Below, piece after piece: positions 32,525 through 60,330 of a DNA stretch of 64,000 nucleotides. The notes below the pieces were generated by a model that had not been told where the DNA came from, did no database searches, and saw nothing but the letters and a program-made list of their open reading frames with translations. Each line of letters opens with the position of its first letter. Positions within the stretch are counted from its first letter, which is position 1. Source of the DNA: an uncultured Verrucomicrobiae bacterium (lineage in GTDB: Bacteria > Verrucomicrobiota > Verrucomicrobiia > Chthoniobacterales > JAFAMB01). The DNA lies in assembly GCA_963748055.1 (NCBI GenBank), contig CAVVII010000011.1, positions 368,915-432,914 of the forward strand, given 5' to 3'. The position numbers and the translations under genes are program-made.

Positions 32525-32587
32525 AAACGGTGGCCGGCAAGGAGTATGGTTTATTGCGTACGCGACTTAAAGAGCATTTTTAGACAC

Positions 32588-32712
32588 GCGTGATGCGGTT
32601 GGGGTCGCGTGATGCGGTTGGGGTCGTATCTAAAAATATAAATATCGCGATGCCGACATGACCGACAAGGTCATCAAAGGGCGTTTAATTATTATATTTT
32701 TAGATACGATCC
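32588..32712 (+). mobile_element. ~94-bp foldback (MITE-like) element, copy 1, with duplicated left flank
   Basis: Element 32620-32712: GGGGTCGTATCTAAAAATATAA..TTATATTTTTAGATACGATCC with inner hairpin ATGACC-GACAA-GGTCAT. Preceded by an exact 19-bp tandem duplication (32588-32606 = 32607-32625, GCGTGATGCGGTTGGGGTC). A right-end-like fragment ATTTTTAGACACG lies at 32576-32588. Confidence 0.8.
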
Positions 32713-33128
32713 TTACGACTAGGCGTTTACGTTGGTGGCACTAGCCAAGCAGGTGGAGACTTCCGAAAGTTCATCCACTATAACAACAGAATAAAGATAT
32801 GTGAGGAGCAACGAAAGGGCTCGTCGGACCTCAGTGGTCGTTCGCACTCAAACTCGCCGGCGGCAACCCCTGCGTATTCCCTCTAACCCTAGCTTTGACG
32901 GCACTAGCGGTCATCCGCCCGATAGCAGGGATCTTTTGCAATTCCAGATCGTACATCGACCACAAAAATAACCTGCTCGAAAATTATTTTTTTGTCGCCT
33001 CATTTCAGAACGATCGTTAGCGTGAGGTTCGAATTAGTTCGACAGACAGCGTTGATCAAACCTGGTCCGAGGCACGCCGGTTTTCAGCGCGATTAGGACA
33101 CAGACCCCTCCAGGAATCCTATAAGAAA

Positions 33129-33320
33129 ATGAAACAAAACTCGGGCGAGATGAAGGTTTGGGCGATCATCTTTGGATTGACAATTTTGGTCGCAGCGATA
33201 CTTGTGGTCTTGGCGCTGATGGAAGAGCAGGGAACTAAGCGCGCAGCGATCGAACGTAGTGCAGAATGGATAGTTGACCGCGAGAAACTAAGTTTCCTTG
33301 TTCAAGGGTTGGTCGTGTAA
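33129..33320 (+). CDS. small hypothetical membrane protein
   Basis: 63 aa with one TM (VWAIIFGLTILVAAILVVLAL). It is the only ORF in a 1.1-kb gene-poor stretch. No homology recognised. Confidence 0.3.
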   Translation: MKQNSGEMKVWAIIFGLTILVAAILVVLALMEEQGTKRAAIERSAEWIVDREKLSFLVQGLVV

Positions 33321-33586
33321 GTTAGTAACAGCTGCCTCTCAAAGGTCACACTCTAATCCCCCTCGGAACGCCCTCGACTTCGGCGCCTGCAATATTCATT
33401 CGCCCTTCTCTCCACGCCTATAGAAGAATTACCAAGGCTCGGCAGGACGCTTCGGGGAGTCCGCGAATTAAGTCCAAAACCGGAGAAAACTAAACTCCCC
33501 TCGATTCTCTCGTCTCGACCGGTCCTGCGCGACAGGCAACGAGGTCGCGCCCGCCGGTGCCGCGACTCTCCCGAGACGGCTTCGTT

Positions 33587-33680
33587 GGGGTCGTATCTAA
33601 AAAAATAAATATTGCGCCGCTCGCATGACCGGAAGGGTCATGATACGGTTTTCAATTATTATATTTTTAGATACGACCCC
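33587..33680 (+). mobile_element. ~94-bp foldback element, copy 2
   Basis: GGGGTCGTATCTAAAAAAATAAATA..ATTATTATATTTTTAGATACGACCCC with inner hairpin CATGACC-GGAAG-GGTCATG. It ends 8 nt from the stop codon of the xylA remnant. Confidence 0.8.
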
Positions 33681-33688
33681 TCAGGCGT

Positions 33689-34100
33689 TTAGATGAAGTC
33701 GTTGATGATATTTTCGAAAAGTTCCTGGCGGCCGCTGGTGTATTGGATGGGGTCGGGTTGGCTCAGAGCGTGTTTTTCAAGGGAGGTGAAATCCTCTTTG
33801 TCCGCTTCGATGGCCGCGCCAATGCCGCTGTCCCAGGACACGCAACGGTTCTTTACCAGGGCGGCGAGGCGACCGTCGGCGCGAATCGCCGCTGCGATCT
33901 TTAGGCCGCGTGCAAAGGCGTCCATACAGCCGATGTGCGGTCGGTCCTTGGGTTTCGGTTCGAGGTAGAAGGCTCCCTTGAATCCGATCTGTTTCTTGTA
34001 ATCGACGGCCATGTGCAGGAACTAGGCAAGGTGCTCCACCTCGCGCTTCAGGTCGGTGTTCCAGAGGCTGGATCTACCCTCATTTTCCGCCGGAGCGGCG
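33689..34100 (-). pseudogene. xylA: xylose isomerase remnant (N-terminal truncation, in-frame stop, ~175-aa internal deletion)
   Basis: The minus-strand translation reads ..[40 protein letters not shown]. It then jumps directly to HIGCMDAFARGLKIAAAI..SGRQELFENIINDFI. These match the conserved XylA blocks LLNTD..FL.MAV.Y.K.IGF.G.FLIEPKPKEP and the C-terminus. TAG stop at 34022-34024. The catalytic middle and the first ~190 aa are absent. Confidence 0.85.
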
Positions 34101-34167
34101 CATTACCCTTGCCTCCCAGGATTGAGCTTTGCTGCGCTGGGCGGCCCTGTTTTAATTTTAAGCGAAA

Positions 34168-34665
34168 TTACCCGCCGGAGTTTGAAGGCAGAAGAGCTTC
34201 TTGGGCGGCTTCGATTCGATGGGATTCGATGCGCCCGCGCTGTTCTTCGGCACGTTGATATAATCTGGCTAGATCGACTTTGCGCAAACCAGGTATTTCC
34301 TCGGCTACGGTGAGAAGAGCGCGCCAAAGTGCTCGCTTGCCTTCAATTCCCAGGGCAAGCGCTTCCAGTTTCTCGAGTCGCGCGAGTTGACCGCCTGCGG
34401 GATCTTCGAGCAGAAGTTTGATTCGGGCGAGCTTCTCGCTCAGAAACGCTGTCGTGTTGCGTATCGCACCGCCACCGGCATCCAGATCGTGCAACAATTC
34501 CTGCAGGATTTCCTGATCCTCGCCAACCTCCTCTCGCAATCGGACAAAAAATTGTTCGTGGGTCTTCCCGCGGTGAGAGGAAACCAGATGATCGAGCAGC
34601 TCCACGGCGGCGACCGAACCGGCGAAATGGTCCTTCATGTAGTTCGTAAGATGCTTTGAATTCAT
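34168..34665 (-). CDS. hypothetical helical protein
   Basis: 165-aa ORF (MNSKHLTNYMKDHFAGSVAAVELLDHL..), predicted all-helical. No family recognised. Confidence 0.45.
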   Translation of the reverse strand: MNSKHLTNYMKDHFAGSVAAVELLDHLVSSHRGKTHEQFFVRLREEVGEDQEILQELLHDLDAGGGAIRNTTAFLSEKLARIKLLLEDPAGGQLARLEKLEALALGIEGKRALWRALLTVAEEIPGLRKVDLARLYQRAEEQRGRIESHRIEAAQEALLPSNSGG

Positions 34666-35165
34666 AAAGCATGTTCGCTTTTCCGCAGATTTTGGCTGGA
34701 CTGTGCTGACCGCCTTTCCGGAAAAATCAGGCGTGTGTCGACTGCGACGTTAGAATGAACGCGTTTGTGCGCGGGACGTACAAGGGACATCGAACGGTTG
34801 CGAAATTTGGAACGTGCCCGGCGCAGCCATTGGCGAGTGCGTCATCGTTTGACGCAATCGGGTCGGTGCACTACTGGTGCTGGTTCGGTCGGGGCGTTGG
34901 CGCGAGGGTCGTACGCGGAATTTGCAGATGCCTGATGATGCACGGTGAAAGTGCCGAGGGTTAGAGCTTGCCTAATGAACCGAGAAATTCGGACAGTGGC
35001 TCGATGAGGCGTCGACCCGCTTCTATTGACGATGGCGATATTCTCGAGTTATTGGCGAGGATTAAGACGAAGGCATCGAGCGACTGCGAAATGCCTAGCC
35101 ACGTTGACAGCTAGCATGATCGGGGCGTTCGCAATGCGCCACGAACCGAACAAGAAAGCAAACAA

Positions 35166-35900
35166 ATGACAGCAAAACTTACTGGAAAAGTTGCCTTAGT
35201 CACTGGAGCGAGTGCAGGCATTGGGCAGGCTTGCGCGCGGCTCCTGGCGCAAGAAGGAGCGAGGCTCGTCCTGACCGCGCGACGTCAAGAGCGGCTCGAT
35301 CAACTCGCGCAGGAGGCGGAGAAACTCGGCACCAAGGCTATCGGCGTCATCGGCGACGCCCGGGAGGAGGCCACGGCGATAAAAACGGTCGCGGCTGCGA
35401 TCCAATCCTTCGGTCAGATCGACATCCTGATCAACAACACGGGCGTGGGTAACTACAAGAACCTTGTCGACACGAGCGCCGAAGAATACGACGACATGAT
35501 GGACACCAACGTGCGCTCCACGTTCCTGTTTACCCGGCATGCCGTTCCGGTCATGCTCAAACAGAAAGAGGGCATCATCCTCATGATCTCGTCTATGGCT
35601 GGTATCTATGGGTTTGGAGGCGAAGCGGTCTATTGCGCAACTAAATTCGCCCAGGTCGGCTTTGCACAGGCACTGGATAAGGAGTTGCGTACCCAGGGAA
35701 TCAAGGTTGGCGTGATCTGTCCCGGCGGAGTCAAGACCGAGTTCGCACTCGGCCGCGGACGAACTGAGGAGAGCGTGAGTCAGTCGAATATGCTCGACCC
35801 GGAAGATGTTGCCGGCGCTGTCCTGCTGGCCTGTACCCAGTCGCCTGGATCACGGATCATCGAGATCCAAATGCGGACGATGGCTGAATCGCTGGCGTGA
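35166..35900 (+). CDS. short-chain dehydrogenase/reductase (SDR)
   Basis: TGASAGIG cofactor motif, NNTG, and catalytic S..YCATK. Confidence 0.9.
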   Translation: MTAKLTGKVALVTGASAGIGQACARLLAQEGARLVLTARRQERLDQLAQEAEKLGTKAIGVIGDAREEATAIKTVAAAIQSFGQIDILINNTGVGNYKNLVDTSAEEYDDMMDTNVRSTFLFTRHAVPVMLKQKEGIILMISSMAGIYGFGGEAVYCATKFAQVGFAQALDKELRTQGIKVGVICPGGVKTEFALGRGRTEESVSQSNMLDPEDVAGAVLLACTQSPGSRIIEIQMRTMAESLA

Positions 35901-36234
35901 TAATGGCGGTTTCGTTTTCGGGGTTGGCAGGCAAAAATCGTGCCGGTCCCTCAAGGGACAAAAGGAACGCAAGGGCCGGCCAAATCCCCAGCGCCTCTTC
36001 CGCTAGCCGAACAACCTCGACATGTTGATTTAGATCGGCGCTCAGCGCGTGCGCGGTCCGACCCTCGTTTTGCGCCGCCCGCAGGACCGCGTCGAGGTCG
36101 TCATGGTTGCGAGACGTCACAATCAGATCGACCCCCTGCTTTGCGAGTTCGACAGCAATCGTGTACCCGATACCTCTGCTCGCTCCGGTTACGAGGGCCT
36201 TTTTTCCGGACAGGTCAAACAATGCATTGGCCAT
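35857..36234 (-). pseudogene. truncated SDR fragment (N-terminal ~85 aa only)
   Basis: MANALFDLSGKKALVTGASRGIGYTIAVELAKQG..RLAEEALG is a normal SDR N-terminus. After about 35985 the reading frame turns to non-homologous sequence and overlaps the 3' end of the convergent SDR gene. NNAG and the catalytic YxxxK are missing. Confidence 0.65.
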
Positions 36235-36491
36235 AATTCAAAGAAGGTTCGCGGAACCGATTCCTGCCCTTCAACGCCTCGCGAAGTTGCGCCCTGACGC
36301 GATCGGGCGGCCGCCAAAGGGCCTGGAGCCATGAAACAGGGTAGGAATCGCTTCTTCCAGCAACATTGGGTGCCGATCGCAAGAAGTCAAGAAGCCGGGA
36401 AACGGCGAAATGCAGTCGCCGAGAATCGGCACCTGGGCGAGCGATCTAAACTTAAACAAGACCGGATTGAAGCCGTAACAAGAGCCTCGAA

Positions 36492-37898: not shown

Positions 37899-38063
37899 TG
37901 CTGCGAGTATATAGCCCGGTCAAGAAGCAAGCTCAACCCAATCACCCGCGCCGAAACCTGCGTCGGGCAGGAACATCAGGAGATTCGCCAATCTCGCGGT
38001 AGGCTATCCGCGCCGCCGCCATTTACGCTTGGTTTGCCTAACCGCTTGCCCTATCTCTGCTGG

Positions 38064-40748: not shown

Positions 40749-41072
40749 AGCATCAATCGGGGGTTGCGCCGCCGGTGTCGACTTCCCGGAGAACTGCGAC
40801 CCGGGTCACTGGTCCAATGGAAACAAGAAAACACCTGATGAGCAGGATCGCTAAAGCGTAAATGTTACAATATTGAAACAATCCAGCAATACCAGCACCT
40901 ACCATTGCATTGAATCTTCTATGGACGTGCCACGCCAGACGCGCCGGAACGCATATACGACCAGCGGCGCTGCACCTGTGTACGAGCAACGAGTTCAACG
41001 AAAAAATCGACGATGGGGTGACCCGTCGGCAAGCGACTTATCGTCTGGGTCGACCACGGAGGAAGCTCATGT

Positions 41073-42443: not shown

Positions 42444-45400
42444 GTGTCTAAGGTCGGCCGTAGTGTTTGGACATTACGTAGACAATATTCCCAGTTGCCA
42501 AGAGTGAAAAAGCGCGGCGCAGACATTCAAAAGAAAAGGGACGCGCTAATCGCTGAGACGAGCGAACGCGAACGGGCAGAAGAGGCGCTTCGCGCGAGCG
42601 AACAGCGATTGCAAGATATTCTGGATAACACGACGGCCGTCGTGTTCGTGAAGGATCTTGAGCTTCGTTACATTTTAGTGAACCGCGAATATGAACGGCG
42701 CCATCAGGTGCAGCGTGACGAAATCCGGGGCAAAACCGACTTTGACATTCTTCCTCATGACGTAGCAGAAACAGTGCGGGCGAACGACCGCCACGTGATC
42801 GAAGCGGATGTGCCCATCCAATTTGAGGAAACCGTACCGACGGAGGGTGGCGAGCGACAATTCGTCGTCGTAAAGTTTTTGCTGCGGGACCGCGCGGTGA
42901 AGCCGTATGCGGTTTGCGGCATCGCGACGGACATCACGGAATTAAAACGGGCTGAAGAACTACAGGCCAGGCGAGCGCGTCAAGCGGCGCTGCGCGCGGA
43001 TATTCATGCCGCGTTCTCCGTTCGGTCCGAAAATGCTTTGCAAACAATCCTCCAGTGCAGCGCTGAGGCCGTGGTGCGTCACCTCGACGGGACTTTTGCA
43101 CGTATCTGGACGCTGAACGACCGACAGAACATATTGGAGTTGCAAGCCAGCGCAGGCCTGTACACCCGCTTGGATGGCGAACATGCCCGGGTGCCCGTTG
43201 GGAAACTCAAAATTGGCCTCATCGCAGAGCAGCGCAAACCTCACCTGACAAACGATGTACCAAACGATGCTCAAATAAGTCATCCCGAATGGGCTAGAGA
43301 GGAGCGAATAACCTCTTTTGTCGGTTACCCGCTTCTGGTCGAGGGACGTCTGGTCGGTGTTTTGGCGATGTTTGCACGTAAGTTTCTGGGGCAGGACACT
43401 CTCGAGGCCCTCGAGGTGGTGGCTGACGGAATCGCGCAAGGTATCGAGCGGAAGCGGGCGGAAGACAAACTCGCCCGACTGAACCGCACGCTTCAGACTC
43501 TCTACCAGTGCAACCAGGCCCTGGTCCGTGCGACTGAGGAGTACGAGTTGTTGCAGTCTGTGTGCCGAATCCTGGTCGAGGTTGGCGGTCTTCGGATGGC
43601 ATGGGTCGGCTACCGCGAATTCGACGAAGACAAAACGGTTAAGCCGGTTGCCCAGGCTGGCTACGAGGCCGGGTATCTGAGACAAATCAGCATTACCTGG
43701 GGTGATACCGACAGCGGTCGCGGACCCATGGGCACAGCCATCCGGACCGGTACCACGCGCTGGAACAGGGACATCCTGACTGACCCAAATATGATTCCTT
43801 GGCGGGCCGAAGCGCTAAGGCGCCGCTACGCGTCCTTAATTTCCCTTCCCCTGATATCTCATGGCGAAGCTTTCGGCGCGCTTGCCCTCTACGCCGAAGA
43901 GCCCGATGCCTTCACGGAAAGTGCGATCGAGCAGTATTCGGATTTGGCGAATAACCTGGCCTATGGAGTGACCGCTCTCCGGACGCGCGAGGAGCGCAAG
44001 CGGGCCGAGAGCGAAATTCGTCAGCTCAACGCTTCGCTCGAGAAACGAGTGGCCGAGCGCACAATCGAACTCGTGCGGTCGAACGACCAGCTGAAACGCG
44101 CCGAAGAACAATTGCGCAAGCACGGCGAGCAGGTGGAGATACACCGTGACGTGCTCCTTGAATTGGCCCGCTCCGACAAATCGGACCTCGAGAAAGCAGT
44201 TCGGAAGATTTGTTCTCGATCGGCCGCAACGCTGGACGTAGCGCGCGTTAGCTACTGGTCTTTGCAGGAAAATAATTCTGCCATTGTTTGCGAAGTCCTC
44301 TATCTCCGCGATGAGGAAAGCTGTGATGAGCACTTCAAAGGCGCCTGCCTAAGCTTTTCTGATTGTCCCGCTTATTTCGGTGCATTGGCCACCAAGCGGC
44401 CGATCGTTGCGAGCCGCGTATTGGTGCATCCCGCCTCGTGCGGGCTGGCGGAGAATTACCTCGAGCCGTTCGGCATTACCTCCATGCTCGACGCGCCCGT
44501 TTGGGTCTCCGGCAAGGTCGTAGGCGTTCTTTGCCACGAGCATACCGGCCCGGCTCGTGACTGGTCAGCGGAGGAAATCGACTTTGTTTCAGCGCTCGCG
44601 TCGATGGTTTCTCTGGCATTGGAAGAATCAAGTCGTGCCCATTCGGAACACTTGCTGCGAGAGAGTGAAGAACGCTTCAGTAAGGCGTTTCGCGCCAGCC
44701 CGGTGAACATTACGATCTTGCGGTTGAGTGATAAAAAGTTCATCGAGGCGAACGATGCTTTTGTCCGGTGGTTCGGCCTGCGCGGTGACGAGATTCCCGG
44801 GCGCGACTCGAAGGAGTTGGGCATTTGGGTGAATCTCGATGACCGCGCGAAGTTTCTATCGGATCTCGAGCGCAACGGATCACTGCGAGAGGTCGAGTGC
44901 CAGCTTCGAACCCGGCGAGGTACCGTTCACACGATCGTGCAATCGGCCGACGTTATCGAAATCAATCGAGAGCCGCACATGCTGGTTATCGGTCTCGACA
45001 TTACGGAGCGCAAGCGGGCCGAGACCGAGTTGCTAAGAACGCTTGCCCGCGAGAAGGAACTTGGGCAGTTGCGAAGCAATTTCGTGTCGATGGTATCGCA
45101 CGAATTTCGTACGCCGCTGGGCATCATCCAGTCATCCGCCGAAATTCTGGAGGACTACCTCGACCGGTTGGAGCCCGGAGAGCGCAAAGAGCATCTCCAA
45201 TCCATCCGGAAAAACACGCGACGCATGGCCCGGTTGATGGAGGAGGCGTTGCTTATCGGAAGTCTCGATGCCGGCAAGATGGAATTTAAGGTAGCGTCGT
45301 TAGAACTGGGGGCATTCGTCCGCGGTCTCGTGGATGAAGTGCTGTCGGCAACGGGCCGGCGATGTCCGATTGAAATGTCATTTGCCGAAATTCCTCTCGA

Positions 45401-45767
45401 GATTCAGGCCGATAAGCGACTGTTGCGGCACATCTTCACCAATTTGCTAACGAACGCTGTGAAGTATTCGGACCTCGGCCGGGCGGTCCGTTTCGAAATG
45501 AGGTGCGAGGCAGCAGAGATTGTTTGCGCGATTCGCGACGAAGGGATCGGAATTCCAGAAGCCGATCGAAAGTGGCTCTTTAACGCCTTCCATCGCGGAC
45601 ATAACGTCAGTGACCGTCCGGGAACGGGGCTCGGTCTGGTAATTGTAAAGCGCTGTCTCGATTTGCACGGCGGCAGCATTGAGGTGGAGAGCAAATTGGG
45701 TGAAGGCACCGCGGTGACTGTCAGACTGCCAACGCTCAATCCTCCGTTCTCGTCTGAACGTCTTTGA
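42444..45767 (+). CDS. soluble PAS/GAF multi-domain sensor histidine kinase (paralog of 2625-5642)
   Basis: 1107 aa with no TM. PAS (..CGIATDITELK), GAF-like blocks (..VGVLAMFARKF.., ..FGALALYAEE.., ..VGVLCHEH..), PAS (..GLDITERK), H-box SHEFRTPL, and NLLTNAVKYS/DEGIGI/GTGLGL. Confidence 0.9.
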   Translation: MSKVGRSVWTLRRQYSQLPRVKKRGADIQKKRDALIAETSERERAEEALRASEQRLQDILDNTTAVVFVKDLELRYILVNREYERRHQVQRDEIRGKTDFDILPHDVAETVRANDRHVIEADVPIQFEETVPTEGGERQFVVVKFLLRDRAVKPYAVCGIATDITELKRAEELQARRARQAALRADIHAAFSVRSENALQTILQCSAEAVVRHLDGTFARIWTLNDRQNILELQASAGLYTRLDGEHARVPVGKLKIGLIAEQRKPHLTNDVPNDAQISHPEWAREERITSFVGYPLLVEGRLVGVLAMFARKFLGQDTLEALEVVADGIAQGIERKRAEDKLARLNRTLQTLYQCNQALVRATEEYELLQSVCRILVEVGGLRMAWVGYREFDEDKTVKPVAQAGYEAGYLRQISITWGDTDSGRGPMGTAIRTGTTRWNRDILTDPNMIPWRAEALRRRYASLISLPLISHGEAFGALALYAEEPDAFTESAIEQYSDLANNLAYGVTALRTREERKRAESEIRQLNASLEKRVAERTIELVRSNDQLKRAEEQLRKHGEQVEIHRDVLLELARSDKSDLEKAVRKICSRSAATLDVARVSYWSLQENNSAIVCEVLYLRDEESCDEHFKGACLSFSDCPAYFGALATKRPIVASRVLVHPASCGLAENYLEPFGITSMLDAPVWVSGKVVGVLCHEHTGPARDWSAEEIDFVSALASMVSLALEESSRAHSEHLLRESEERFSKAFRASPVNITILRLSDKKFIEANDAFVRWFGLRGDEIPGRDSKELGIWVNLDDRAKFLSDLERNGSLREVECQLRTRRGTVHTIVQSADVIEINREPHMLVIGLDITERKRAETELLRTLAREKELGQLRSNFVSMVSHEFRTPLGIIQSSAEILEDYLDRLEPGERKEHLQSIRKNTRRMARLMEEALLIGSLDAGKMEFKVASLELGAFVRGLVDEVLSATGRRCPIEMSFAEIPLEIQADKRLLRHIFTNLLTNAVKYSDLGRAVRFEMRCEAAEIVCAIRDEGIGIPEADRKWLFNAFHRGHNVSDRPGTGLGLVIVKRCLDLHGGSIEVESKLGEGTAVTVRLPTLNPPFSSERL

Positions 45768-45775
45768 ACGAGTTT

Positions 45776-46411
45776 ATGAAAAAAATCTTGGTTATCGAAG
45801 ACGAACCGGAGATGCGTCGCAACCTGGTGACCGTCCTTCGGTTGGAGAATTTTCACCCGCTGCCCGCCGAAAACGGACGGATCGGAGTGGACTTGGCGAA
45901 GAAGGAAAAGCCTAACCTCATTCTTTGCGACGTGATGATGCCCGAACTGGACGGTTACGGCGTGATCGCTTCGCTTCGCGCCGACGCAGAGACCGCCGCC
46001 ATCCCGTTCATCTTTCTCACGGCCAAAAGCGAAACTCGCGACGTTCGTGCCGGAATGAACCTTGGTGCGGATGATTACCTTATCAAACCGGTTGCCAAGC
46101 CTGAATTGTTGGCCGCGATCCATTCGCGTCTCGAACGTTCTCTCCAGCAGACAGTACCGGAATTCAAACCTAACTTCCATTCTGCAAAACCGTTGGAGGA
46201 AGTCCTTGGCTTAACCCCGCGTGCTGCCGAAACGCTGCTCTGGCTTGCTCAAGGTAAAACAAACGGTGAGATCGCAGCCATTCTCCGCAACAGTGAATCC
46301 ACAGTAAAAAAATACGTCCTCGAGATTTTTGGCAAGCTCGAGGTCGAAACCCGAACCGCAGCCTCTGTGCGCGCGCTGGCAGTGCTCAGTTCGCCCGCAG
46401 CATACGAATAG
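45776..46411 (+). CDS. response regulator, REC plus LuxR-type HTH (paralog of 1993-2628)
   Basis: MKKILVIEDEPEMRRNL.. The same architecture and linker (QQTVPEFKPNF.SAKPLE) as the left-hand copy. Confidence 0.9.
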   Translation: MKKILVIEDEPEMRRNLVTVLRLENFHPLPAENGRIGVDLAKKEKPNLILCDVMMPELDGYGVIASLRADAETAAIPFIFLTAKSETRDVRAGMNLGADDYLIKPVAKPELLAAIHSRLERSLQQTVPEFKPNFHSAKPLEEVLGLTPRAAETLLWLAQGKTNGEIAAILRNSESTVKKYVLEIFGKLEVETRTAASVRALAVLSSPAAYE

Positions 46412-46538
46412 CCTCTCACACCAGCGGGCCGGGACCGAATGTCCCGGCAAGAAATGCACTCAGTGGCGGTCGGGGCACCCATGTGGCGGTCCATTTCGAG
46501 GTTGCGCCAACCCGGGAAATCACTCATAAGACGGGCAA

Positions 46539-50360: not shown

Positions 50361-50488
50361 AGCCGCCGGAGGAGCCGTGACCTGGGGTCGGGAGCCGTGA
50401 CTTGGGGTCGTATCTAGAAATATAAATATCGCAACCTCCGCAGGATCGGCAAAGGTTCATGATTGGATTTTAATTATTATGTTTTTAG
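50361..50488 (+). mobile_element. ~94-bp foldback element, copy 3, with duplicated left flank
   Basis: Element 50394-50488: GGGGTCGTATCTAGAAATATAAATA..TTATTATGTTTTTAGATACGACCCC. Preceded by a 20-bp tandem duplication (50361-50380 vs 50381-50400, GGAGCCGTGAC(C/T)TGGGGTCG, one mismatch). Confidence 0.8.
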
Positions 50489-50757
50489 ATACGACCCCTA
50501 TTACCGCCTCTCTAATTCTCATCTTCAGAAGACTTCAGATTTGGACAGGTTGTTCATGGGACTCCAAGTGTCCCGCAAACGGGATTTGACTGTTCGATAT
50601 TCGGGACGGAAACCGTCTCAAGGCCTGCCCTTTTCCCATTTGTTTTCGGTTAAGGTGTTCAGATCCAGGCACTTATCTTGAGTAAAGCTATTGGCATGCG
50701 TGATGCTTCAGGACTCGTCTGCAACCACCTCCAGTCGCTACAGGGAAACCCAACCAA

Positions 50758-52854
50758 ATGCCAAAGCTCAATCGCCGACCACTTTCGCCCACCGAGGATC
50801 TCACTGCGAAGCAAACTTTTACAGGAACGGACACGAAAACCGCGAATAGCAATATCGCTGCGAAAAGAGAAGCGCGTAACAGCTTACTTACCGAAGTGGC
50901 CAAGAGTTCGCGTAGGCAGCCGACGGGAGCACCAGTAGGGCAAGGGGTCAATGCGCTCCAAAAGAACCATCCGGAGAAGTCTTCCGTGCCGGCGGTTGGC
51001 ATTCCTGGCCAGTTGACACCAGGGAAGCTATTTGCGTGTTTTGAACTGCAGCGCGAACTGGAAAATAGGAGCACGGGATCGGTCTGGCTGGCTCAGGATT
51101 ACAGCCCGAAACGCCACTTCGAACAAGTAGCACTAAAGTTTCTGCCTGATTTCATCGTCAGCGGAAAGATCTCCATTGAGGAGCTGAAGGCCGAAATCCG
51201 CCGGAGAATCGCGCTCAAGCATCCCAATATTTTAAGTGTCTATGACCTGGTGGAAAACAAAGGGAGAATCGCCATCCAGATGGAATACCTGGAAGGCCAT
51301 AGTTTGTCGCATTTGCGTATGATAAAGCCGAATCAGATATTCGAAGTCCGGGACCTGGAGAAATGGATGAAGGACTTGTGTGAGGCATTGGAGTATGCCC
51401 ACAAAAGTGCAGGGCTTATCGCGGGCGACATTTTGCCGGAGAACTTGATCGTAGATCCCGGTGGGAATCTGAAGCTGAAGGACTTTGGAATCGCAAATTG
51501 CATCACCGATTCGATGAGACGGTTGATGGCAATTCATGACACGAGCGAGACTCTGCCGTACGGGAGCCCGCAGCGGATAGCGGGGGAAAAGCCGGCGATC
51601 ACTGACGATCTATATTCGCTCGGAGCCAACATCTATGAATTACTGACCGGCAAACCGCCCTTTTATGCGGGGGATATTCGTGACCAGGTGAACGGGAAGC
51701 CCCCCCCTTCAATGAGCGAGAGGAGAACCGAACTTGGAATAAAAGGCGATGCTATTCCGAAATATTGGGAGGAAACGGTGGCGGCCTGTTTAGCGAAAGA
51801 TCCGGTTCAACGCCCCCAGAGCGCGTCCGAAGTAGGGAATCGACTGAAAAACGCTACCCCTCCATCAAGCATTCCCTCTGCCTCTACGGCTAACTCCGAG
51901 CCTAAGCCTGTTTCAAAACCCCGAGTTCCGGTGCGAAATCCGCTCACCTGGAAGAGGCGGTTGGGGATCTTAGGCGTCATCTTCTTCCTGGCGTTGTTCG
52001 CGGCGACTGCTTTCTTTTTGTTTCACCAGCGATCTGATCGTTTCGTTCCAGTGCAAGGGCCTTCCCCCACGCCTGCGGTCCCGCCATCTCCGTCAGGGAC
52101 GATCGGAAAGGACGGCTCTCCATGGGTGACTACACCCCCTCCAGAGGGCAGCCCGGCACCTGCTCCGGAGGCGAGTCCGGCACCCGCCCCGGAGGGCAGC
52201 CCGGCACCTGATCCAGAGGCGAGCGCGGCACCTGCTCCAGAGGCCGTTCTAACACCAACTTCTGATTCGGTTACAGGCCCTTCCCCTGAGGCGATTCCAA
52301 CATCCTCTTCTGAATTGAGCCGAACTCTTTCTCCACAAGAGGCTACCATCCTAAATGCAAAGCAGTCCACAGAGCCTTCTCCGACTCCGTTAAGTCTGGA
52401 TGAGATCGATGCGACGAAGGAAGAGGTGGTCAAACGGATCAACGCTCTTCCTGGAGTCAGTGCCCAGAGAAAGGCGACTCTGATCGGGAAAATGCATAAA
52501 GCTCGTTCAATGGAACGCCTGACGGTTGTTCCCTTCGATGTCGGTCAGACAATTCTGCGCAGAGCCGCTACGGATGAACTGCTGAAAGCGTTCAGCCGGC
52601 CCGAAACGCGGGACAAACTGAGTGACCCGACGACAATCCTGGTGGTGGCCGGCTATGCCGATACCGTTGGCCGCGCGGACAAGAATCTCCGCGTCTCACA
52701 GGAGCGAGCGGAGAATGTGAGCAAGGTTCTCAGAGAACAGGCAAACTTACTCAATGCTATGCAGACAATAGGAATGGGAGGAACTGAACTTCTCGATAGC
52801 AAGCGACCAGATCAGAATCGAGTTGTTGAGGTTTGGGTAGTTGTGCCCCTGTAG
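50758..52854 (+). CDS. Ser/Thr kinase-like domain - TM - Pro/Ala-rich linker - OmpA-like domain fusion protein
   Basis: Kinase fold: VALKFL (beta3 Lys), DFG (LKDFGIA), ..DLYSLGANIYELLTGKPPF. The catalytic loop reads AGDILPEN instead of HRDxKPxN and the Gly loop is degenerate. TM LGILGVIFFLALFAATAFFLF. C-terminal OmpA-like VVAGYADTVGRADKNLRVSQERAENV. Confidence 0.8.
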   Translation: MPKLNRRPLSPTEDLTAKQTFTGTDTKTANSNIAAKREARNSLLTEVAKSSRRQPTGAPVGQGVNALQKNHPEKSSVPAVGIPGQLTPGKLFACFELQRELENRSTGSVWLAQDYSPKRHFEQVALKFLPDFIVSGKISIEELKAEIRRRIALKHPNILSVYDLVENKGRIAIQMEYLEGHSLSHLRMIKPNQIFEVRDLEKWMKDLCEALEYAHKSAGLIAGDILPENLIVDPGGNLKLKDFGIANCITDSMRRLMAIHDTSETLPYGSPQRIAGEKPAITDDLYSLGANIYELLTGKPPFYAGDIRDQVNGKPPPSMSERRTELGIKGDAIPKYWEETVAACLAKDPVQRPQSASEVGNRLKNATPPSSIPSASTANSEPKPVSKPRVPVRNPLTWKRRLGILGVIFFLALFAATAFFLFHQRSDRFVPVQGPSPTPAVPPSPSGTIGKDGSPWVTTPPPEGSPAPAPEASPAPAPEGSPAPDPEASAAPAPEAVLTPTSDSVTGPSPEAIPTSSSELSRTLSPQEATILNAKQSTEPSPTPLSLDEIDATKEEVVKRINALPGVSAQRKATLIGKMHKARSMERLTVVPFDVGQTILRRAATDELLKAFSRPETRDKLSDPTTILVVAGYADTVGRADKNLRVSQERAENVSKVLREQANLLNAMQTIGMGGTELLDSKRPDQNRVVEVWVVVPL
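52141..52245 (+). repeat. 4.4 x 24-nt in-frame tandem repeat (PE(G/A)SPAPA)
   Basis: CCAGAGGGCAGCCCGGCACCTGCT and three close variants follow head to tail inside the extracytoplasmic linker of the kinase-OmpA protein. Confidence 0.85.
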
Positions 52855-54921: not shown

Positions 54922-55163
54922 GGTAAGGAACGCGGTTGGCGTCACACGTTAGGTAGGGTTCACCGCGAATTGCGCGGTAGGGTCAAGCTCCCGCTTGACC
55001 GGCGTGGCACGTCTTAGGAACGTGTCAGACTGCCGCCCGAAGAGTCACTGGGTGATCGGGAGTAAGTAATGCGTCTCGCTTTGCCTTTTCTGTATGTATC
55101 GCGGGTCCCTGGTTCCAGTGCTTCAGTATGAAGCGGGACGAAGAGGTAAGGCGAGAAGCAGCT

Positions 55164-56529
55164 TCACTCGCGTGCTAAGAGTAGCGCTGGTTTTAGCCAG
55201 AACGGTGGTAGACAGAGCGGCGTGGAGGAAATCGGCAGGATATCGTCGCTGATATTGACGCCGAGGATATTCCGCATAAAGGCCTGCCGCGCCTCGATGC
55301 GCCGCCAGGTTGCCGGATGATCTGCGCGTATTTCTGCCCGCAGGGATTCTTCAGCAAAGATGACGGCATCTTCGCAGTTAAGAGCCCAACCGTTTCGTAG
55401 CGGCACCGGGATGACGTCGACTTGAAATGGCATGCCGGAACGAATGCGATCGGTAGATCCAGGTCGGACCGGGCTGTGGATCCATTCGTCGTGACCGGTG
55501 AGGTGGCCGGGATTGAGTGCCGATTTCAATCTGGCGCGTGCAAGCGTATCGGTGACCGCACGCGAACACAACTTCGCCCGCTACACCGATCGCAGAGGTT
55601 TCGTACCAAGTGATTAAGCCCGCGAAATAAGATGACGCTACCTTCAGGAAATCGTCGTCAGAGTTGGTGATCAAGCCGGCACGAGAGGCGAGGCCGCCCG
55701 AAAATCCGATTGCCGCGGTGACGCCGTCGCCTCGCCGCAGACGCCTGCTCGACGGACTTCGAAGGCCGACGACCGGAACGCTGTGATCTCCGGAGGCGAA
55801 CATCATATGGACGTTGAATGGATCGCCCTGGTAATCCATCCGAGCCGCTGCCTCGAATTCGCTTTCACCCTCTTGAATACCGGCAACGATTCGCCAGAGC
55901 ATCTGCGAAGACCGGGCGGCTGCCCATTCGAAGGCTGCGATTTGATTGGCATCGATGACGGACCGAAGGCCCGTCTCGGGGTGCATTAGACAGGCCGTCG
56001 CGTCGATGATCGTGCCTTCCGGTTGGATGGCTCTGCGCAGGACATCGATGAAGAAAGAGGGTACGAAGAATCCGGGAGCATCGCTGTCCCACTCCTCGCT
56101 TTCGAGATATTTCCAGCCCGCAAGGGCGATGCTGTCGCCCGAGCCAATCCCAGCCTCTTGCAGCACGGCCAGCAACCTTGGTCGGCGGGAACGGTCTTGT
56201 CCCATCAGGCTCATGGTCTGGGAAAGCTGGACATCGAGTCCCGGCAACCCGGCGAGCAACGCATAGCTTTCACACTCGTTGCCTGTGATCAAGATTCGAC
56301 GACCGTTCGGACCCAGCAAGAGCAGCGCCTCCTCGAAGCGCGGTTCGAAGCCACAAAGAAACGCCATATTGGCGGAGTGCTCGCGGTCGGCATAAACAAC
56401 GAACCAATTGCAGCCTGCACGCCGGTAGGCTTCGCCACAGCGTGCTTCGTAAGTGCCTCCTGGTATTCCCGGTTGTTCACCGAAGTCGACGGCTGTGGGC
56501 GGCTCGATCGGACGGATCACGATGGACAT
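55164..56529 (-). pseudogene. M24-like (creatinase/prolidase-fold) protein, frameshifted (or sequencing error)
   Basis: The N-terminal ~320 aa (MSIVIRPIEPP.. to ..AIGVAGEVVF) are in the 55378-56775 ORF. The C-terminal 135 aa (..AVTDTLARA..NPGHLTGHDEWIHSP..PFQVDVIP..) are in the 55164-55571 ORF. The frames meet at about 55560-55575. Family assignment is tentative. Confidence 0.5.
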
Positions 56530-56656
56530 GACGCCAAATCTTAGCAGTCTGGCCATGGCCAAAGCGAACATGAAATGCCTGCTTTTCCTTGTCTTTGGCG
56601 ATCGAGTGGTCAGGCCCACGACTCGAACTGGATTCGCGAGGCACAAATGGTAACGG

Positions 56657-57415
56657 CTACTGCGCCGTCCATCCACCGTCCATGAGGATATCCGTGCCCG
56701 TGATAAAGCCCGCATCCGCGGAGCACAGGTAGAGAGCGAGCTGGCCGATTTCTTCCACGCGTCCCCAGCGGCCAAGCGGGATTTTGGAAAGAAATTGCTG
56801 ATTCAGCTCCGGGTTTTGTATCAACGCGGTATTCATCTCCGTGGCGAAGGGCCCGGGACTGATGGCGTTAACGGTGATACCCTCGTCTGCGAGTTCCAGC
56901 GCCAATGCGCGCGTCAGGCCGAGCAATGCCGTTTTGCTTGCTGAGTAGGCCGAGCGCCCTGGCAGCGAAACCCGACTCATAGAAGATGCCATATTAATAA
57001 CGCGGCCGTATCCTGTGCCCTTCATGTGCGGCACAAACGATCGGCACATCAGGAACACGCTTGTCAGGTTTGTATCCAGGACTCGGCGCCATTCTTCCAG
57101 CGTGAATTCGACCAGTGGTTTTCGAAGATTGATGCCGGCGTTGTTGATCAGGATGTGGACGCCGTTAAAAGCGTCCATGACATTCTGTTCGAGTGCGCGG
57201 ATCTGCTTCTCATCCGATACATCGACCGGAAAAACTTGCGCCTTGCCGTCTAACTTCTCTACCGCTTGTTTTACTCCGTTCAACTGCTCAACGTCGCGTG
57301 AAACGAGCGCGATGTTCGCGCCCGCAGCACCCAGCGCCAAGGCCATTGCCTTTCCCAGTCCTTTGCTGGCTCCTGTGATGACTGCCACCTTACCATTTAG
57401 CTTGTGTTCGCTCAT
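56657..57415 (-). CDS. SDR family oxidoreductase (gluconate-5-dehydrogenase-like)
   Basis: Start MSEHKLNGKVAVITGASKGLG. Motifs NNAG, S..YSASK and a PG motif. The upstream ORF extension only reads through a TGGAGT-type repeat. Confidence 0.9.
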   Translation of the reverse strand: MSEHKLNGKVAVITGASKGLGKAMALALGAAGANIALVSRDVEQLNGVKQAVEKLDGKAQVFPVDVSDEKQIRALEQNVMDAFNGVHILINNAGINLRKPLVEFTLEEWRRVLDTNLTSVFLMCRSFVPHMKGTGYGRVINMASSMSRVSLPGRSAYSASKTALLGLTRALALELADEGITVNAISPGPFATEMNTALIQNPELNQQFLSKIPLGRWGRVEEIGQLALYLCSADAGFITGTDILMDGGWTAQ

Positions 57416-57477
57416 TTCGCACGCTTTCAACCTGTCAGAATCATATGGAGAACGAGGCCGGCCGTCACGGATTGATT

Positions 57478-57540
57478 GTGGAGCGGAGTGGTGGAGTGAG
57501 GAGCAATGGAGTGGTGGAGTGTGGAGTGGTGGAGTGGTGG
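57478..57540. repeat. (G/A)TGGAGT-rich low-complexity repeat
   Basis: GTGGAGCGGAGTGGTGGAGTGAGGAGCAATGGAGTGGTGGAGTGTGGAGTGGTGGAGTGGTGG. A related block lies at 60124-60225. Confidence 0.75.
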
Positions 57541-57562
57541 AAGGCCGGAGGCACTCCAACCA

Positions 57563-57580
57563 TCGGAGGTTAGCCTCCGA
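57563..57580. repeat. REP-like hairpin TCGGAGG-TTAG-CCTCCGA (inverted orientation)
   Basis: Followed by GCATGCCGCCCGTCGGTCCGCCGACGCG, the reverse complement of the GTCGGCG-type flank. Confidence 0.65.
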
Positions 57581-57621
57581 GCATGCCGCCCGTCGGTCCG
57601 CCGACGCGTTGCTCACCGTTG

Positions 57622-58431
57622 TCACTCCTGCTGAACGGCCTTCTGATAAACCTCAAGTGCAGCAGGCATCAGTTGCTCAAGTTGATTGATCCGCGTTTCG
57701 TCTGCCGGATGTGTCGACATCAATTCCGGGGGCTTCGAACCCTGGCTTGCCGCCATCATCCTTTTCCAGAAAGACACTGACTCACGCGGATCGTAGCCGG
57801 CCCGGGCCATGTACGTAAGCCCGATCTGGTCTGCCTCCAGCTCATGCTTCCGGCTGAACGGCAAAAGGACGCCGTATTGCGCGCCGGCGCCAAGCATTCC
57901 AAGCAGTTGTCGCTGCGCCTGAGGGTCCAGGTCGGACATCGATCCCTGGATTCCCATCATCGCTATCTGTAGGGCATTTTGTTGAAAAACTCGCTGGGCG
58001 CCATGTCTCGAGGTCGCGTGTGCGATTTCGTGGCCGAGAACGGTGGCAAGACCTGCCTCGTTCCGTGTGATTGGCAAAATACCGGTGTAGACCACAATTT
58101 TTCCGCCGGGGAGGCAAAAGGCGTTCTGTGCAGGATTTTGAACCACTGCGACCTGCCACTGATATCGCTCGGAACCGGTGTCGACAACCCGGACCAATCG
58201 GGAAGCTACTCTGCGAACCAGGTCATATGCGGGACCGGATTGCACGACGCTGGAATGATTGACGACCTCACGAAAGCTCTGAAGTCCCAATTGCTGCTCC
58301 TGCGTGTCCGACAGGCCCACATGGGCTTTGCGACCAGTTTCAGGATTAACAAATGTCTCCGACGTGAGATAAACCCAACCCACGGCGATGACCGCGAAAA
58401 GTATGGGAAGGAACCTTAGCGAACGCCGCAT
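57622..58431 (-). CDS. M48 family zinc metallopeptidase
   Basis: Start MRRSLRFLPILFAVIAVGWVYL (signal/TM). HEIAH zinc motif (LGHEIAHATSRHG) and downstream ..ELEADQIG... Confidence 0.85.
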   Translation of the reverse strand: MRRSLRFLPILFAVIAVGWVYLTSETFVNPETGRKAHVGLSDTQEQQLGLQSFREVVNHSSVVQSGPAYDLVRRVASRLVRVVDTGSERYQWQVAVVQNPAQNAFCLPGGKIVVYTGILPITRNEAGLATVLGHEIAHATSRHGAQRVFQQNALQIAMMGIQGSMSDLDPQAQRQLLGMLGAGAQYGVLLPFSRKHELEADQIGLTYMARAGYDPRESVSFWKRMMAASQGSKPPELMSTHPADETRINQLEQLMPAALEVYQKAVQQE

Positions 58432-58552
58432 ATACCTGAGGGCTAATATCGCGAAGCGCGAAAGAGATTGCAATAGAGGCTCGGTCAAGAAGACCCCAAG
58501 CATTCGAGTTCAATCGGGCGCCGTGGTCCCCTTCCGCCGCCTGGGGCAATTA

Positions 58553-59080
58553 TCATTGTTGCCGCGACAGAACTAGCTCCGCTGGTTTAAACGTCTCGTT
58601 CATGGTGACCGGTTGAGCGCGTTTGACTGTTTTTTCACGTGTAACCGGTCCCGGGCGTCTAGCTTTTGCAGTTTTGACAGACATGTCCGGCTTCGGGACC
58701 GACTCATTGCCGGAGCCAATCAGCCCATCCTTGACCAAGTTCTGAACTTCGACGGCTACGGGCCGCTGTTGGGTGTCCTGGTCTTGCTTCTTCAGGAGTT
58801 CATCTAGAAAAATGTGATCTTCCTTGCTGAAAATTTGGAACGATAGATGGCCAGGATCGCCGGTCGGACTTGGAGCGTCTATTGTGCGGCGGTCAGGGGA
58901 AGCATCGGAAGTATTCTCTTGGCGAGCGATTGTCCCTCGATTTTGAGCAATCAAAGCCGCCAGGGAGAACACGATGATGCAGGTCCCAACCACGCGGACC
59001 GGTCTGATCAATACTTTCAATAGCGCGTACGTCACTGCCCCGATCAAGAGAACGAAGGCTGTGAGCAAGATGTCGCTCAT
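58553..59080 (-). CDS. hypothetical membrane protein
   Basis: 175 aa with two N-terminal TMs, then a charged, low-complexity tail. No homology recognised. Confidence 0.45.
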   Translation of the reverse strand: MSDILLTAFVLLIGAVTYALLKVLIRPVRVVGTCIIVFSLAALIAQNRGTIARQENTSDASPDRRTIDAPSPTGDPGHLSFQIFSKEDHIFLDELLKKQDQDTQQRPVAVEVQNLVKDGLIGSGNESVPKPDMSVKTAKARRPGPVTREKTVKRAQPVTMNETFKPAELVLSRQQ

Positions 59081-59307
59081 ACTGTTCTAAAATGTTCCAT
59101 TGTGGCGTCGCCTTTGTCCTTGGCGCCTTTCCCGGTTGCCCAATGGGCATCGGCACCAAAATATCAGAACATTTTTACATATGGAAGATATAATGAACAG
59201 GTATTCTTATGGAAAATACGTCTGCGGGCGTCAATAACTTGCCGGGCGCAGGCTTGCTTGAAAATGCGAGCAAACGGGACGGGAGTGGCAGGGTGACCGC
59301 TCAGCAA

Positions 59308-60114
59308 ATGAACCTCTATCGGCGGGCCGGAATGGGAAGAAGCTTAAGGCGCATCTGCGCCTCCGCCGTTCTCGGGTCCTTAATGGCGGCTGGTTTCCTT
59401 CCGATCTTGGCACTGGCGGAGGAGGGTGAGGGAGTTCGCGAGGAAATGGAGGCTTTGCAGGCGAAGGTGGCATCCCTGCAGGCGACCGTTTCCACGCTGC
59501 AGGGGCAGGTCTCGTCGCTGCAGAGCCAGTTGGCCGTAGTCCAATCCAATGCCGCACTCGCACTTGGTCCTTTCGTCACCGTCGATCCCGATGCGGAGTT
59601 TGGCGTGGTTGGTCCGCACATCACATTTAAGGGCGCCAATATTCATATCGTCAGCGGCTCGGGCTTTACCAACGACAACGACAATCCCACCGGACTTGGC
59701 AATTTGATTGTTGGCTATAACGAACCATCGGGAGGTCTGAGCAGCAGCGACCGCGGCGGGTCACACAACTTGGTGCTCGGGAGGTACAACAGGTTCACGG
59801 AAGCTGCTTTTGGCGGCCTGGTCGCAGGGGAGCTAAACACGATCAGCGGCAAAGAGGCCTCCGTTGCCGGCGGCGCGAACAACATTGCCAGCGGTTCCGG
59901 ATCCAGCGTTAGCGGCGGAATGAGCAACACCGCTAGCGATAGCCAGGCCAGCGTCAGCGGCGGCGACGGCAATGCCGCCGGCGGAACGCAGTCCAGCGTG
60001 AGCGGGGGCGTAGGCAACACTGTGACCGGGTCGGCGGCGGTAATTATCGGAGGCCAAAATGTTACGGGTAGCGCCGGCGGTTCGATCAGGCCGCAGCCGC
60101 CCTTCAACCCGTGA
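59308..60114 (+). CDS. secreted coiled-coil protein with YadA-head/Hep_Hag-like Gly/Ser/Asn repeats
   Basis: Signal peptide (..ICASAVLGSLMAAGFLPILALA). Heptad coiled coil LQAKVASLQATVSTLQGQVSSLQSQLAVVQ. Then repeated ..SV(A/S)GG..N.ASG.. units (SVAGGANNIASGSGSSVSGGMSNTASDSQASVSGGDGNAAGGTQSSVSGGVGN). No membrane anchor domain. Confidence 0.6.
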   Translation: MNLYRRAGMGRSLRRICASAVLGSLMAAGFLPILALAEEGEGVREEMEALQAKVASLQATVSTLQGQVSSLQSQLAVVQSNAALALGPFVTVDPDAEFGVVGPHITFKGANIHIVSGSGFTNDNDNPTGLGNLIVGYNEPSGGLSSSDRGGSHNLVLGRYNRFTEAAFGGLVAGELNTISGKEASVAGGANNIASGSGSSVSGGMSNTASDSQASVSGGDGNAAGGTQSSVSGGVGNTVTGSAAVIIGGQNVTGSAGGSIRPQPPFNP

Positions 60115-60123
60115 TCGGAGGAA

Positions 60124-60225
60124 TAGGAGGAGCAGGGAGTGGTGGAGTAGGAGGAGCAGGGAGTGATGGAGTAGTGGAGTAGTGGAGTAATGGAGTAGAT
60201 GGAGTAATGGGGAGTGGTGAAATGG
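60124..60225. repeat. TGGAGT-rich tandem/low-complexity repeat
   Basis: AGGAGGAGCAGGGAGTG(G/A)TGGAGT occurs twice, then AGTGGAGT AGTGGAGT AATGGAGT AGATGGAGT AATGGGGAGTGGTG. It shares GGAGTGGTGGAGT with 57478-57540. Confidence 0.75.
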
Positions 60226-60292
60226 AGCGTGAAATCGCAGCGCCGCTCATGAAGCCGAGAACCTCGACGAAGCCAACCGGAGGACCCGGGTT

Positions 60293-60330
60293 GGGGTCAT
60301 ATCTAAAAAAATGTTTTTAGATACGACCCC
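60293..60330. mobile_element. minimal foldback element, copy 4 (termini only)
   Basis: GGGGTCATATCTAAAAAAATGTTTTTAGATACGACCCC. Both termini of the ~94-bp family are joined with almost no internal sequence, followed by GGCGTTT as in copies 1 and 2. Confidence 0.75.

Follow-up and report, generated by a model that had tools for sequence, protein, structure and literature searches.

We analyzed a 64,000-nt stretch of DNA (hereafter, the window) from an uncultured Verrucomicrobiae bacterium of the order Chthoniobacterales (contig CAVVII010000011.1, positions 368,915 to 432,914 of the forward strand), in which a family of short foldback elements had been predicted from the sequence alone. The window does contain four foldback copies with inverted termini, one of them minimal. 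With up to two mismatches, the terminus GGGGTCRTATCTARAAA has eight matches, arranged as four inverted pairs; by chance, 0.02 matches are expected (mean of 100 shuffles), and none of the 100 shuffles attained eight. We refer to the copies as c1 to c4, and to loci fetched for comparison by L numbers. All four copies are intergenic and lie in one shared orientation. Copy c1 (32620-32713, + strand) is a 94-nt foldback whose left arm is GGGGTCGTATCTAAAAATATAAATATCG; its inner hairpin spans 32658-32674, and its right terminus, ..TAGATACGATCCT (AGGATC), has decayed. Copy c2 (33587-33680, + strand), likewise a 94-nt foldback, is the best preserved and has its inner hairpin at 33624-33642, while c3 (50404-50498, + strand) is a 95-nt foldback with a degenerate interior. 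Copy c4 (60293-60330, + strand) is a minimal 38-nt hairpin of two 17-nt termini with a 4-nt joint, and is thus two termini joined, as had been proposed. The predicted coordinates stood for c2 and c4, whereas the end of c1 moves from 32712 to 32713 and c3, placed at 50394-50488, was 10 nt off.

The copies are close to genes. The start of c1 is 95 nt upstream of the ATG of a response regulator, and the end of c2 is 8 nt from the stop codon of an open reading frame (ORF) at 33689-34012 on the − strand; both distances had been predicted. Copy c3 starts 50 nt, rather than the predicted 40 nt, past the stop codon of an aldo/keto reductase gene (50353). Folded as single-stranded DNA (ssDNA), c1 to c3 reach −18 to −27 kcal/mol (c2, −27.2) and c4 reaches −12.4 kcal/mol; the Z-scores range from −4.7 to −8.0, and no shuffle was as stable. 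An inner hairpin, ATGACC..GGTCAT, is present in c1 and c2, the two copies for which it had been predicted, and is degenerate in c3. On the + strand, c1 to c3 have a left arm of the ATAT(C/T)G type and a right arm of the TAATT(A/G) type, in agreement with the claim that these three share an orientation. Whole elements are 79 to 82% identical among c1 to c3, while their 28-nt arms are 89 to 96% identical. This better preservation of the arms suggests that they are under constraint. The same copies are present in the same strain in other samples (L068, L069, and L210, identified by exact-protein matches), and c3 is identical in one of these (L210). Collapsed versions resembling c4 also occur in L079 and L170.

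Members of the family are found well beyond the window. A scan of reference genomes for the terminus, with a set of species representatives that does not contain the source genome, returned 67 matches, almost all of them single chance hits; only one metagenome-assembled genome (MAG), JBKPCS01 (L035, L053, and L065), contained three true family ends. A lack of further copies had been named in advance as a finding that would count against mobility. At least dozens of true family members, among the matches listed, are present in unrelated contexts in soil metagenomes, mainly in samples Ga0207684, Ga0070706, Ga0209328, and Ga0209526. Family members have about 31 conserved nucleotides, GGGGTCGTATCTAAAAATATAAnWWWTG, followed by variable interiors. 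On soil contigs, they occur as singles, as inverted dimers of 100 to 191 nt, and as clusters. Every distinct soil dimer among the matches listed (12/12) combines one left-type arm with one right-type arm. In one subfamily, represented by six loci, similarity stops about 9 to 11 nt outside GGGGTC, past a GC-rich clamp, CGCTTC(C)GC.

Two side observations were made on these loci. L035 and L113 are orthologous (98.5% identity) and differ by a 311-nt indel (L035, 973-1283) whose end is only a few nucleotides beyond a family terminus. The indel hints at element-adjacent rearrangement and is not interpretable as a simple insertion. In addition, the 17-mer GGGGTCATATCTAAAAA is common to an apparently unrelated repeat family, found mostly in sample Ga0126336, whose longer conserved unit is ..ttcacaatatttaaactttatggGGGGTCATATCTAAAAAACTAGGATGGAGTGGGGGGTCAGTTTGAA (loci L070, L071, L077, L080, L088, L094, L096, L105, L108, L110, L127, L136, L152, L163, and L171).

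A search for a transposase gene carrying the same termini, as had been suggested, was successful. We find two independent metagenomic loci (L129/L132 and L190-L199) in which a Y1/HUH gene is bracketed by inverted family termini; L132 is the L129 locus in another sample. In L129, positions 4895-5932 encode a 345-amino acid (aa) protein that matches Pfam Y1_Tnp (E = 1e-13) and contains the motifs NHYH and YIHLNP. A GGGGTCGTATCTAAAAATATAA terminus lies 64 nt upstream of its ATG, and the final codons of the gene, with its stop, fall within the downstream terminus (..ICHLLYF-TAG, encoded by atttgtcatttattatatttTTAGatacgacccc). The termini are located at 4831 (+) and 5942 (−) in L129, and at 5937 (+) and 7048 (−) in L190. 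They are identical over at least 22 nt and inverted, and both cassettes have exactly 1112 bp between them. A homologue with 73% identity to the L129 protein, P0002, has the same two-terminus layout. Its gene has an RND pump gene on one side and a Usp gene on the other in all contigs read (21/21), and this single genomic context indicates that it is single-copy. In L200, a more distant member, AGGGTCAC precedes the ATG by 66 nt and the downstream repeat is decayed. When the Y1/HUH transposase was searched by tblastn against the window and 189 loci, only L129 and L132 matched. A homologue search returned more than 4,100 proteins of 341 to 347 aa, some labelled RayT by JGI and one from a Chthoniobacterales MAG. 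Their C-termini, encoded by AT-rich codons, vary by subfamily (CHLLYF, CKILKL, LHYLNL, and LLVKT). This fits an arrangement in which the 3′ end of each subfamily's gene would lie inside its own AT-rich terminus.

The enzyme resembles known Y1 transposases and has an additional domain. Foldseek searches with the AlphaFold model of P0002 (pLDDT 83) gave 4ER8, the Escherichia coli RAYT with its REP hairpin, as the top match in PDB, followed by the TnpA proteins of IS608 and ISDra2. The best-scoring NCBIfam family is REP_Tyr_transpos/RayT (NF047646), at 43 to 50 bits against a cutoff of 80; the IS200 family (NF033573) scores 17 to 23 bits against a cutoff of 55. A family profile matches the DnaA domain IV structures 8BTG and 1J1V (E = 7e-7, residues 255-342). 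A PDB search with the single transposase sequence gave no match, and the profile alone gave one. Pfam PF08299 is matched weakly by a single sequence (E = 0.006) and is precomputed for several homologues. The DnaA domain IV-like domain probably binds part of the double-stranded terminus.

The two ends of the cassette can be told apart, and this allows the arms of the window copies to be assigned. Terminus positions 23-28 read ATATTG (L190) or GTTTTG (L129) at the upstream end, and TAAATG at the downstream end of both. The left arms in the window, ATAT(C/T)G, are like the upstream end of L190, and the right arms, TAATT(A/G), are close to TAAATG. The right arm of c2, read on the + strand in the frame of the gene, gives ..YGFQLLYF-stop; the frame was set by eye through comparison with L129 and L190. 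These codons are a remnant of the 3′ end of the transposase gene. Since a left-type and a right-type arm are combined in the window copies, these can be read as internally deleted cassette miniatures, and since the right arm of c2 still spells the last codons of the gene, as miniature cassettes without their gene. Each miniature would retain about 45 nt of the left end of the cassette and about 45 nt of its right end, stop codon included. Furthermore, c1 to c3 share their length (94 to 95 nt), their breakpoints, and their junction hairpin, which indicates that one ancestral miniature was multiplied. We thus consider it likely that c1 to c4 are non-autonomous, internally deleted miniatures of a RAYT-like TIRtron cassette (TIRYT), a class common in soil Verrucomicrobia.

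We compared the window with related genomes; the orthologous comparison covers the c1/c2 site only. The aldo/keto reductase of the window is 89% identical to one in a Chthoniobacterales MAG from NCBI. Of the relatives compared at the c1/c2 site, L211 aligns with window positions 25427-32533 at 90.6% nucleotide identity, with local gene order kept. In L211, an intact gene for a 382-aa AP_endonuc_2 (xylose-isomerase-like) protein ends 15 nt before the ATG of the response regulator, where the window has 1153 extra nucleotides (32534-33686). These nucleotides comprise a 47-nt stretch of ancestral promoter, which L212, L213, and L214 have as well, together with c1, 873 nt, and c2. Homology to L212/L213 (79 to 80% identity) and to L214 (86.6%) ends at window position 32580, with no element beyond. 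The segment at 32581-33686, in which 873 nt separate c1 from c2, is lineage-specific, being missing from the orthologous region of L211, L212/L213, and L214. The 873-nt spacer has no homologue in any fetched locus, and a terminus search in about 85 kb of the relatives' loci found none, versus eight in the 64-kb window. Conservation at orthologous positions, which the original prediction took as the mark of a functional hairpin, is thus not what we find at the c1/c2 site. A further sequence in this region, TTTTTAGACAC (32576-32587), was considered as a fifth degenerate arm. Its homology to L212, L213, and L214 marks it as ancestral promoter DNA, and the idea was rejected.

The comparison also bears on the neighboring genes. 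The ORF next to c2 had been called a xylA remnant, and this agrees with the intact gene found at that position in L211: only two fragments of the xylose-isomerase-like gene are left in the window (33932-34072 and 33687-33939). Beside the 90.6%-identical syntenic block, window positions 33687-36480 are heavily rearranged relative to L211 (1696-4332), and an SDR gene segment (35065-35936) is inverted. For c3, relatives of the aldo/keto reductase locus (L201-L209, 91% amino acid identity) lack the element. They were rejected as a clean empty site because their downstream gene differs.

The flanks of the copies carry two recurrent features. The heptamer GGCGTTT, predicted to follow three of the copies, is found on the + strand 9 nt beyond the right end of c1 (32722-32728), 3 nt beyond c2 (33684-33690), and directly abutting c4 (60331-60337, 0 nt). 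At c2, its last bases overlap the − strand stop codon of the decayed xylose-isomerase-like gene. Given the 11 + strand occurrences of GGCGTTT in the window, its presence after at least three of four right ends has a chance probability of about 4e-8. An 8-mer, GGCGTTTA, occurs at the GGCGTTT of c1 and again within c1 at 32680. The heptamer may represent an extended right end or a target preference; the comparison with L211 suggests that only its GTTT part is ancestral flank at c2. As a target-site duplication it was rejected, the left flanks (CGGTT, TCGTT, GACTT, and GGGTT) being only loosely alike. None of c1 to c4 is bounded at both termini by an immediately adjacent direct repeat of at least 3 nt, and the only recurrent flank feature seen in this respect is an imperfect GTT/GTTT, 3 to 12 nt past the right terminus of c1, c2, and c4.

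The second feature, overlooked by the original prediction, is a tandem duplication of 19 to 20 nt before c1 and c3. At c1, a 19-nt unit, GCGTGATGCGGTTGGGGTC, is repeated on the + strand (32588-32606 and 32607-32625), and at c3 a 20-nt unit, AGGAGCCGTGACCTGGGGTC / GGGAGCCGTGACTTGGGGTC (50370-50389 and 50390-50409, + strand). In both cases, the second unit finishes in the first 6 nt of the element (GGGGTC). A near-identical strain (L068) has a 16+19-nt version of the duplication at c1. Among the matches listed, 12 of 93 distinct terminus-matching sequences have such a tandem duplication, with a period of 18 to 20 nt, or 25 nt in one. All 12 stop exactly at GGGGTC/GTATC, whereas the 95 other GGGGTC sites of these loci show no such case (0/95); a thirteenth match, with an 8-nt period (L186), looks like chance. 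The duplicated unit is the outermost stretch of the terminus. Longer end-anchored duplications of 41 nt (L146), 55 nt (L133), and 144 nt (L129) also occur. The pattern could be caused by nicking at GGGGTC/G with strand transfer, or by selection for a second binding site, and GGGGTC/G is possibly the cleavage position.

Two further observations concern these duplications. The 144-nt tandem duplication in L129 (5943-6086) consists of the 3′ end of the TIRYT gene plus the terminus, and its first copy also has a 19-nt terminal duplication. L133 and L172 were considered as orthologous loci with and without a terminal duplication and were rejected, having unrelated flanks and only their element subfamily in common.

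The family and its cassette match a class that is known but barely studied. TIRtrons and their TIRYT genes were described by Di Nocera, De Gregorio & Rocco 2013 (PMC3733652) and were placed in TnpA-Y1 subclass 2.1 by Quentin et al. 2018 (PMC6006769). TIRYT genes have long inverted repeats, which often contain GGGGWSAS, in some cases overlap the gene 3′ end, and occur as singles, dimers, and clusters (PMC3733652, PMC6006769). The original prediction had not recognized the family as a named element; its class, TIRtron/TIRYT terminal inverted repeats (TIRs), had already been named (PMC3733652). The shared characters are a RAYT-like Y1/HUH gene with a C-terminal helix-turn-helix (Bac_DnaA_C-like) domain; long TIRs, rather than GTAG REP hairpins, flanking that gene; a constant spacing of about 64 nt between the upstream repeat and the ATG; a downstream repeat that overlaps the gene 3′ end; a terminus that begins GGGG(T)(C); and a single-copy gene with repeat copies dispersed as singles, dimers, and clusters (in the window, four dimers). 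There are also differences. GGGGTCGT fits GGGGWSAS at six of eight positions and the left arm of c4, GGGGTCAT, at seven of eight; many published TIRs contain this motif, though not all of them do. Those surveys did not cover the host, which belongs to an uncultured Chthoniobacterales lineage. Finally, neither the constant pairing of left and right arms in dimers nor the 18- to 20-nt duplications were found in PMC3733652 or PMC6006769.

Another comparable system is REPIN-RAYT (Bertels & Rainey 2011, PMC3116915; Nunvar 2010, PMC2817692). Both systems have inverted conserved arms around a less conserved spacer that form a long hairpin; non-autonomous, intergenic elements in many copies; and a single-copy Y1 transposase gene flanked by an inverted repeat. 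Here, however, the arms start with GGGGTC and are not self-complementary, short GTAG-tagged palindromes are absent, and the enzyme, at about 345 aa and with an extra DnaA domain IV-like domain, falls below the RayT equivalog cutoff. The family works like REPIN-RAYT yet is no canonical member, lacking both the GTAG palindromes and RayT equivalog status. With IS200/IS605 elements (the TnpA proteins of IS608 and ISDra2), the enzyme shares the Y1/HUH fold and, presumably, a single-strand cut-and-rejoin chemistry that leaves no target duplication. Those elements are multi-copy and autonomous, with subterminal hairpins, whereas we find a gene in a single context with inverted termini; the enzyme also scores below the TnpA equivalog cutoff (17 to 23 bits versus 55).

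In size, inverted termini, foldback structure, and intergenic position, the copies resemble miniature inverted-repeat transposable elements (MITEs) mobilized by DDE transposases (RUP, Correia/NEMIS, Nezha, and ERIC). They differ in having no target-site duplication and in a cognate gene that encodes a tyrosine/HUH enzyme. The initial description as a small MITE/foldback family is accurate for a small, mobile foldback repeat, but not in the sense of a classical MITE. Because the mobilizing enzyme is an ssDNA HUH tyrosine transposase and no target-site duplication is present, the nearest analogue is a REPIN or TIR dimer.

Movement of the miniatures can be pictured as follows. A TIRtron is a 1.1-kb cassette in which a single-copy TIRYT gene is bracketed by TIRs of about 28 to 37 nt. 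In transient ssDNA, for example on the lagging-strand template, the two arms of a miniature would form a long hairpin by pairing. This hairpin and the conserved sequence would then be recognized in trans by a TIRYT whose gene lies elsewhere in the genome, and the enzyme would cut and rejoin single strands via a 5′-phosphotyrosine intermediate. The miniature could thereby spread to new intergenic sites without target duplication. This single-strand cut-and-rejoin mechanism is modelled on IS608 and E. coli TnpA-REP, and the host would still carry an active TIRYT.

Several observations weigh against this reading of the copies as TIRtron miniatures. By tblastn, no TIRYT gene was found in the 64-kb window, and a cognate enzyme in the host is assumed. 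No two window copies are identical, which gives no sign of recent transposition. The original prediction had called the family apparently active in this lineage, which goes beyond what the window shows: the copies are just 79 to 82% identical, and the window has no transposase gene. L211 does not provide a clean empty site, as it is also without the 47 nt of ancestral promoter, and the filled c1/c2 site is a 1.15-kb composite that includes the 873-nt spacer. The substrates of characterized Y1 enzymes are hairpins, whereas one terminus alone is not. Lastly, the literature searched, including PMC3733652 and PMC6006769, holds no biochemical characterization of a TIRYT, and the mechanism therefore rests on the analogy with IS608 and E. 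coli TnpA-REP.

Three other explanations were weighed. Host-selected functional hairpins, such as terminators, mRNA 3′ stabilizers, or protein-binding sites, would be intergenic, have stable stems, and have arms better conserved than their interiors, as the copies do, and two of them, c2 and c3, are found shortly after gene 3′ ends. It is also known that REP and MITE elements acquire such roles (PMC3733652). Yet a terminator scan of 32400-33900 was negative and no T-tract follows the stems, the window has no match in Rfam, and c1 precedes the start of an operon instead of following a 3′ end. Relatives, moreover, lack the copies at the orthologous c1/c2 site, and the arms of the copies are homologous to both ends of a transposase cassette, remnant codons included. 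We regard it as improbable that these are functional hairpins rather than mobile DNA, although a secondary host role may have arisen after insertion.

Each copy might instead be the separate wreck of a full-length TIRtron that inserted on site, with no miniature ever having transposed. The presence of both cassette ends in the copies would agree with such an origin, as would the deletions and partial tandem copies of ends that are common in the family (the 144-nt, 41-nt, and 55-nt duplications of L129, L146, and L133). Separate deletions would not, however, repeat the same length of 94 to 95 nt, the same breakpoints, and the same junction hairpin in c1 to c3. The TIRYT gene is single-copy wherever this can be examined, and within one subfamily, soil dimers that have the same interior are found repeatedly, each time in another context. 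Independent wrecks are accordingly very unlikely in our estimation. The hypothesis that we credit least, and hold to be barely plausible, is that the copies are classical MITEs moved by a DDE-type insertion sequence with the same inverted termini (GGGGTCGTATCTAAAAA). A 94-nt element that sits between genes and has TIRs of about 28 nt would suit this hypothesis. The lack of a direct target-site duplication at any copy argues that they are not DDE-type MITEs, and the sole coding gene found between such termini is a Y1/HUH transposase, DDE transposases not having been searched for.

If c1 to c4 are TIRtron miniatures, their flanks invite a more specific interpretation, which we offer as doubtful speculation. 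The tandem duplications would be footprints left in vivo when a TIRYT nicks DNA and transfers strands, the DnaA domain IV-like module would dock on the AT-rich TATCTAAAAATATAA, and c4 would be a dimer decaying toward a REP-sized palindrome, in parallel with L079 and L170. When TATCTAAAAATATAA / GTATCTAAA is compared with the DnaA box TTATCCACA, six of nine positions agree; this is a lead only. If the interpretation is true, the footprints and GGCGTTT would reveal, for the first time from natural sequences, where a TIRYT cleaves and which targets it prefers.

More than 4,100 homologues of about 345 aa make the TIRYT class a large one, and it is common among soil Verrucomicrobia. The window and the metagenomic loci also add the likely origin of dispersed repeats as exact miniatures of the cassette, left end joined to right end; an enzyme domain matched by family profile to DnaA domain IV; and a reproducible 18- to 20-nt terminal duplication that points to a candidate nick site. 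For annotation, the four hairpins would best be treated as selfish-repeat insertions and not as regulatory signals of their neighbors. Copy c1 lies in the promoter region of a two-component operon, and the c1-c2 cluster lies within a rearranged region that contains the decayed xylose-isomerase-like gene and the inverted SDR gene.

The window contains other repeats. A GTAG-tagged REP-like family, with GGTAGGG, a short palindrome, and CCGGCGTGGCACGTC, is present at 54978-55015 (+), 60440-60492 (−), and 40924-40938 (−). One of these copies follows c4 at a distance of about 110 nt, and a Chthoniobacterales relative (L204, about 4050-4200) has a related inverted pair. Given these copies, a canonical REP/RAYT system may also be present in the lineage. 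A third short palindromic repeat, GCGTGATCGGAGGTTATCCTCCGATG, is found at 11944-11969, 12605-12652, and 60490-60515, and links the 12-kb region with the repeat cluster by c4. Several tandem repeats are also present, in coding or intergenic sequence. Those of the GGAGTGGTGGAG type are located at 57490-57550 and at 60117-60219, the latter just upstream of c4. Other tandem repeats consist of 96-nt units rich in AGGATCAGAAGA (27004-27493) and of 24-nt units of the proline/alanine type (52133-52276).

An element of about 250 nt occurs twice (1552-1802 and 12648-12893), with 98% identity, in inverted orientation, and 10.8 kb apart. It has three internal palindromes: AGCCTGCATCGCTCACAAATC..GATTTGTGAGCGATGCAGGCT (48 nt), GCTCTTAAACAGACGC..GCGTCTGTTTAAGAGC (35 nt), and CTAGCCCGC..GCGGGCTAG. 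This could be another, more recently active repeat, or the two copies could be the ends of a composite element. Finally, about 2.8 kb at 1988-4809 is paralogous to 43997-46416, inverted and with 74 to 79% identity, and contains large sensor-kinase-like ORFs.

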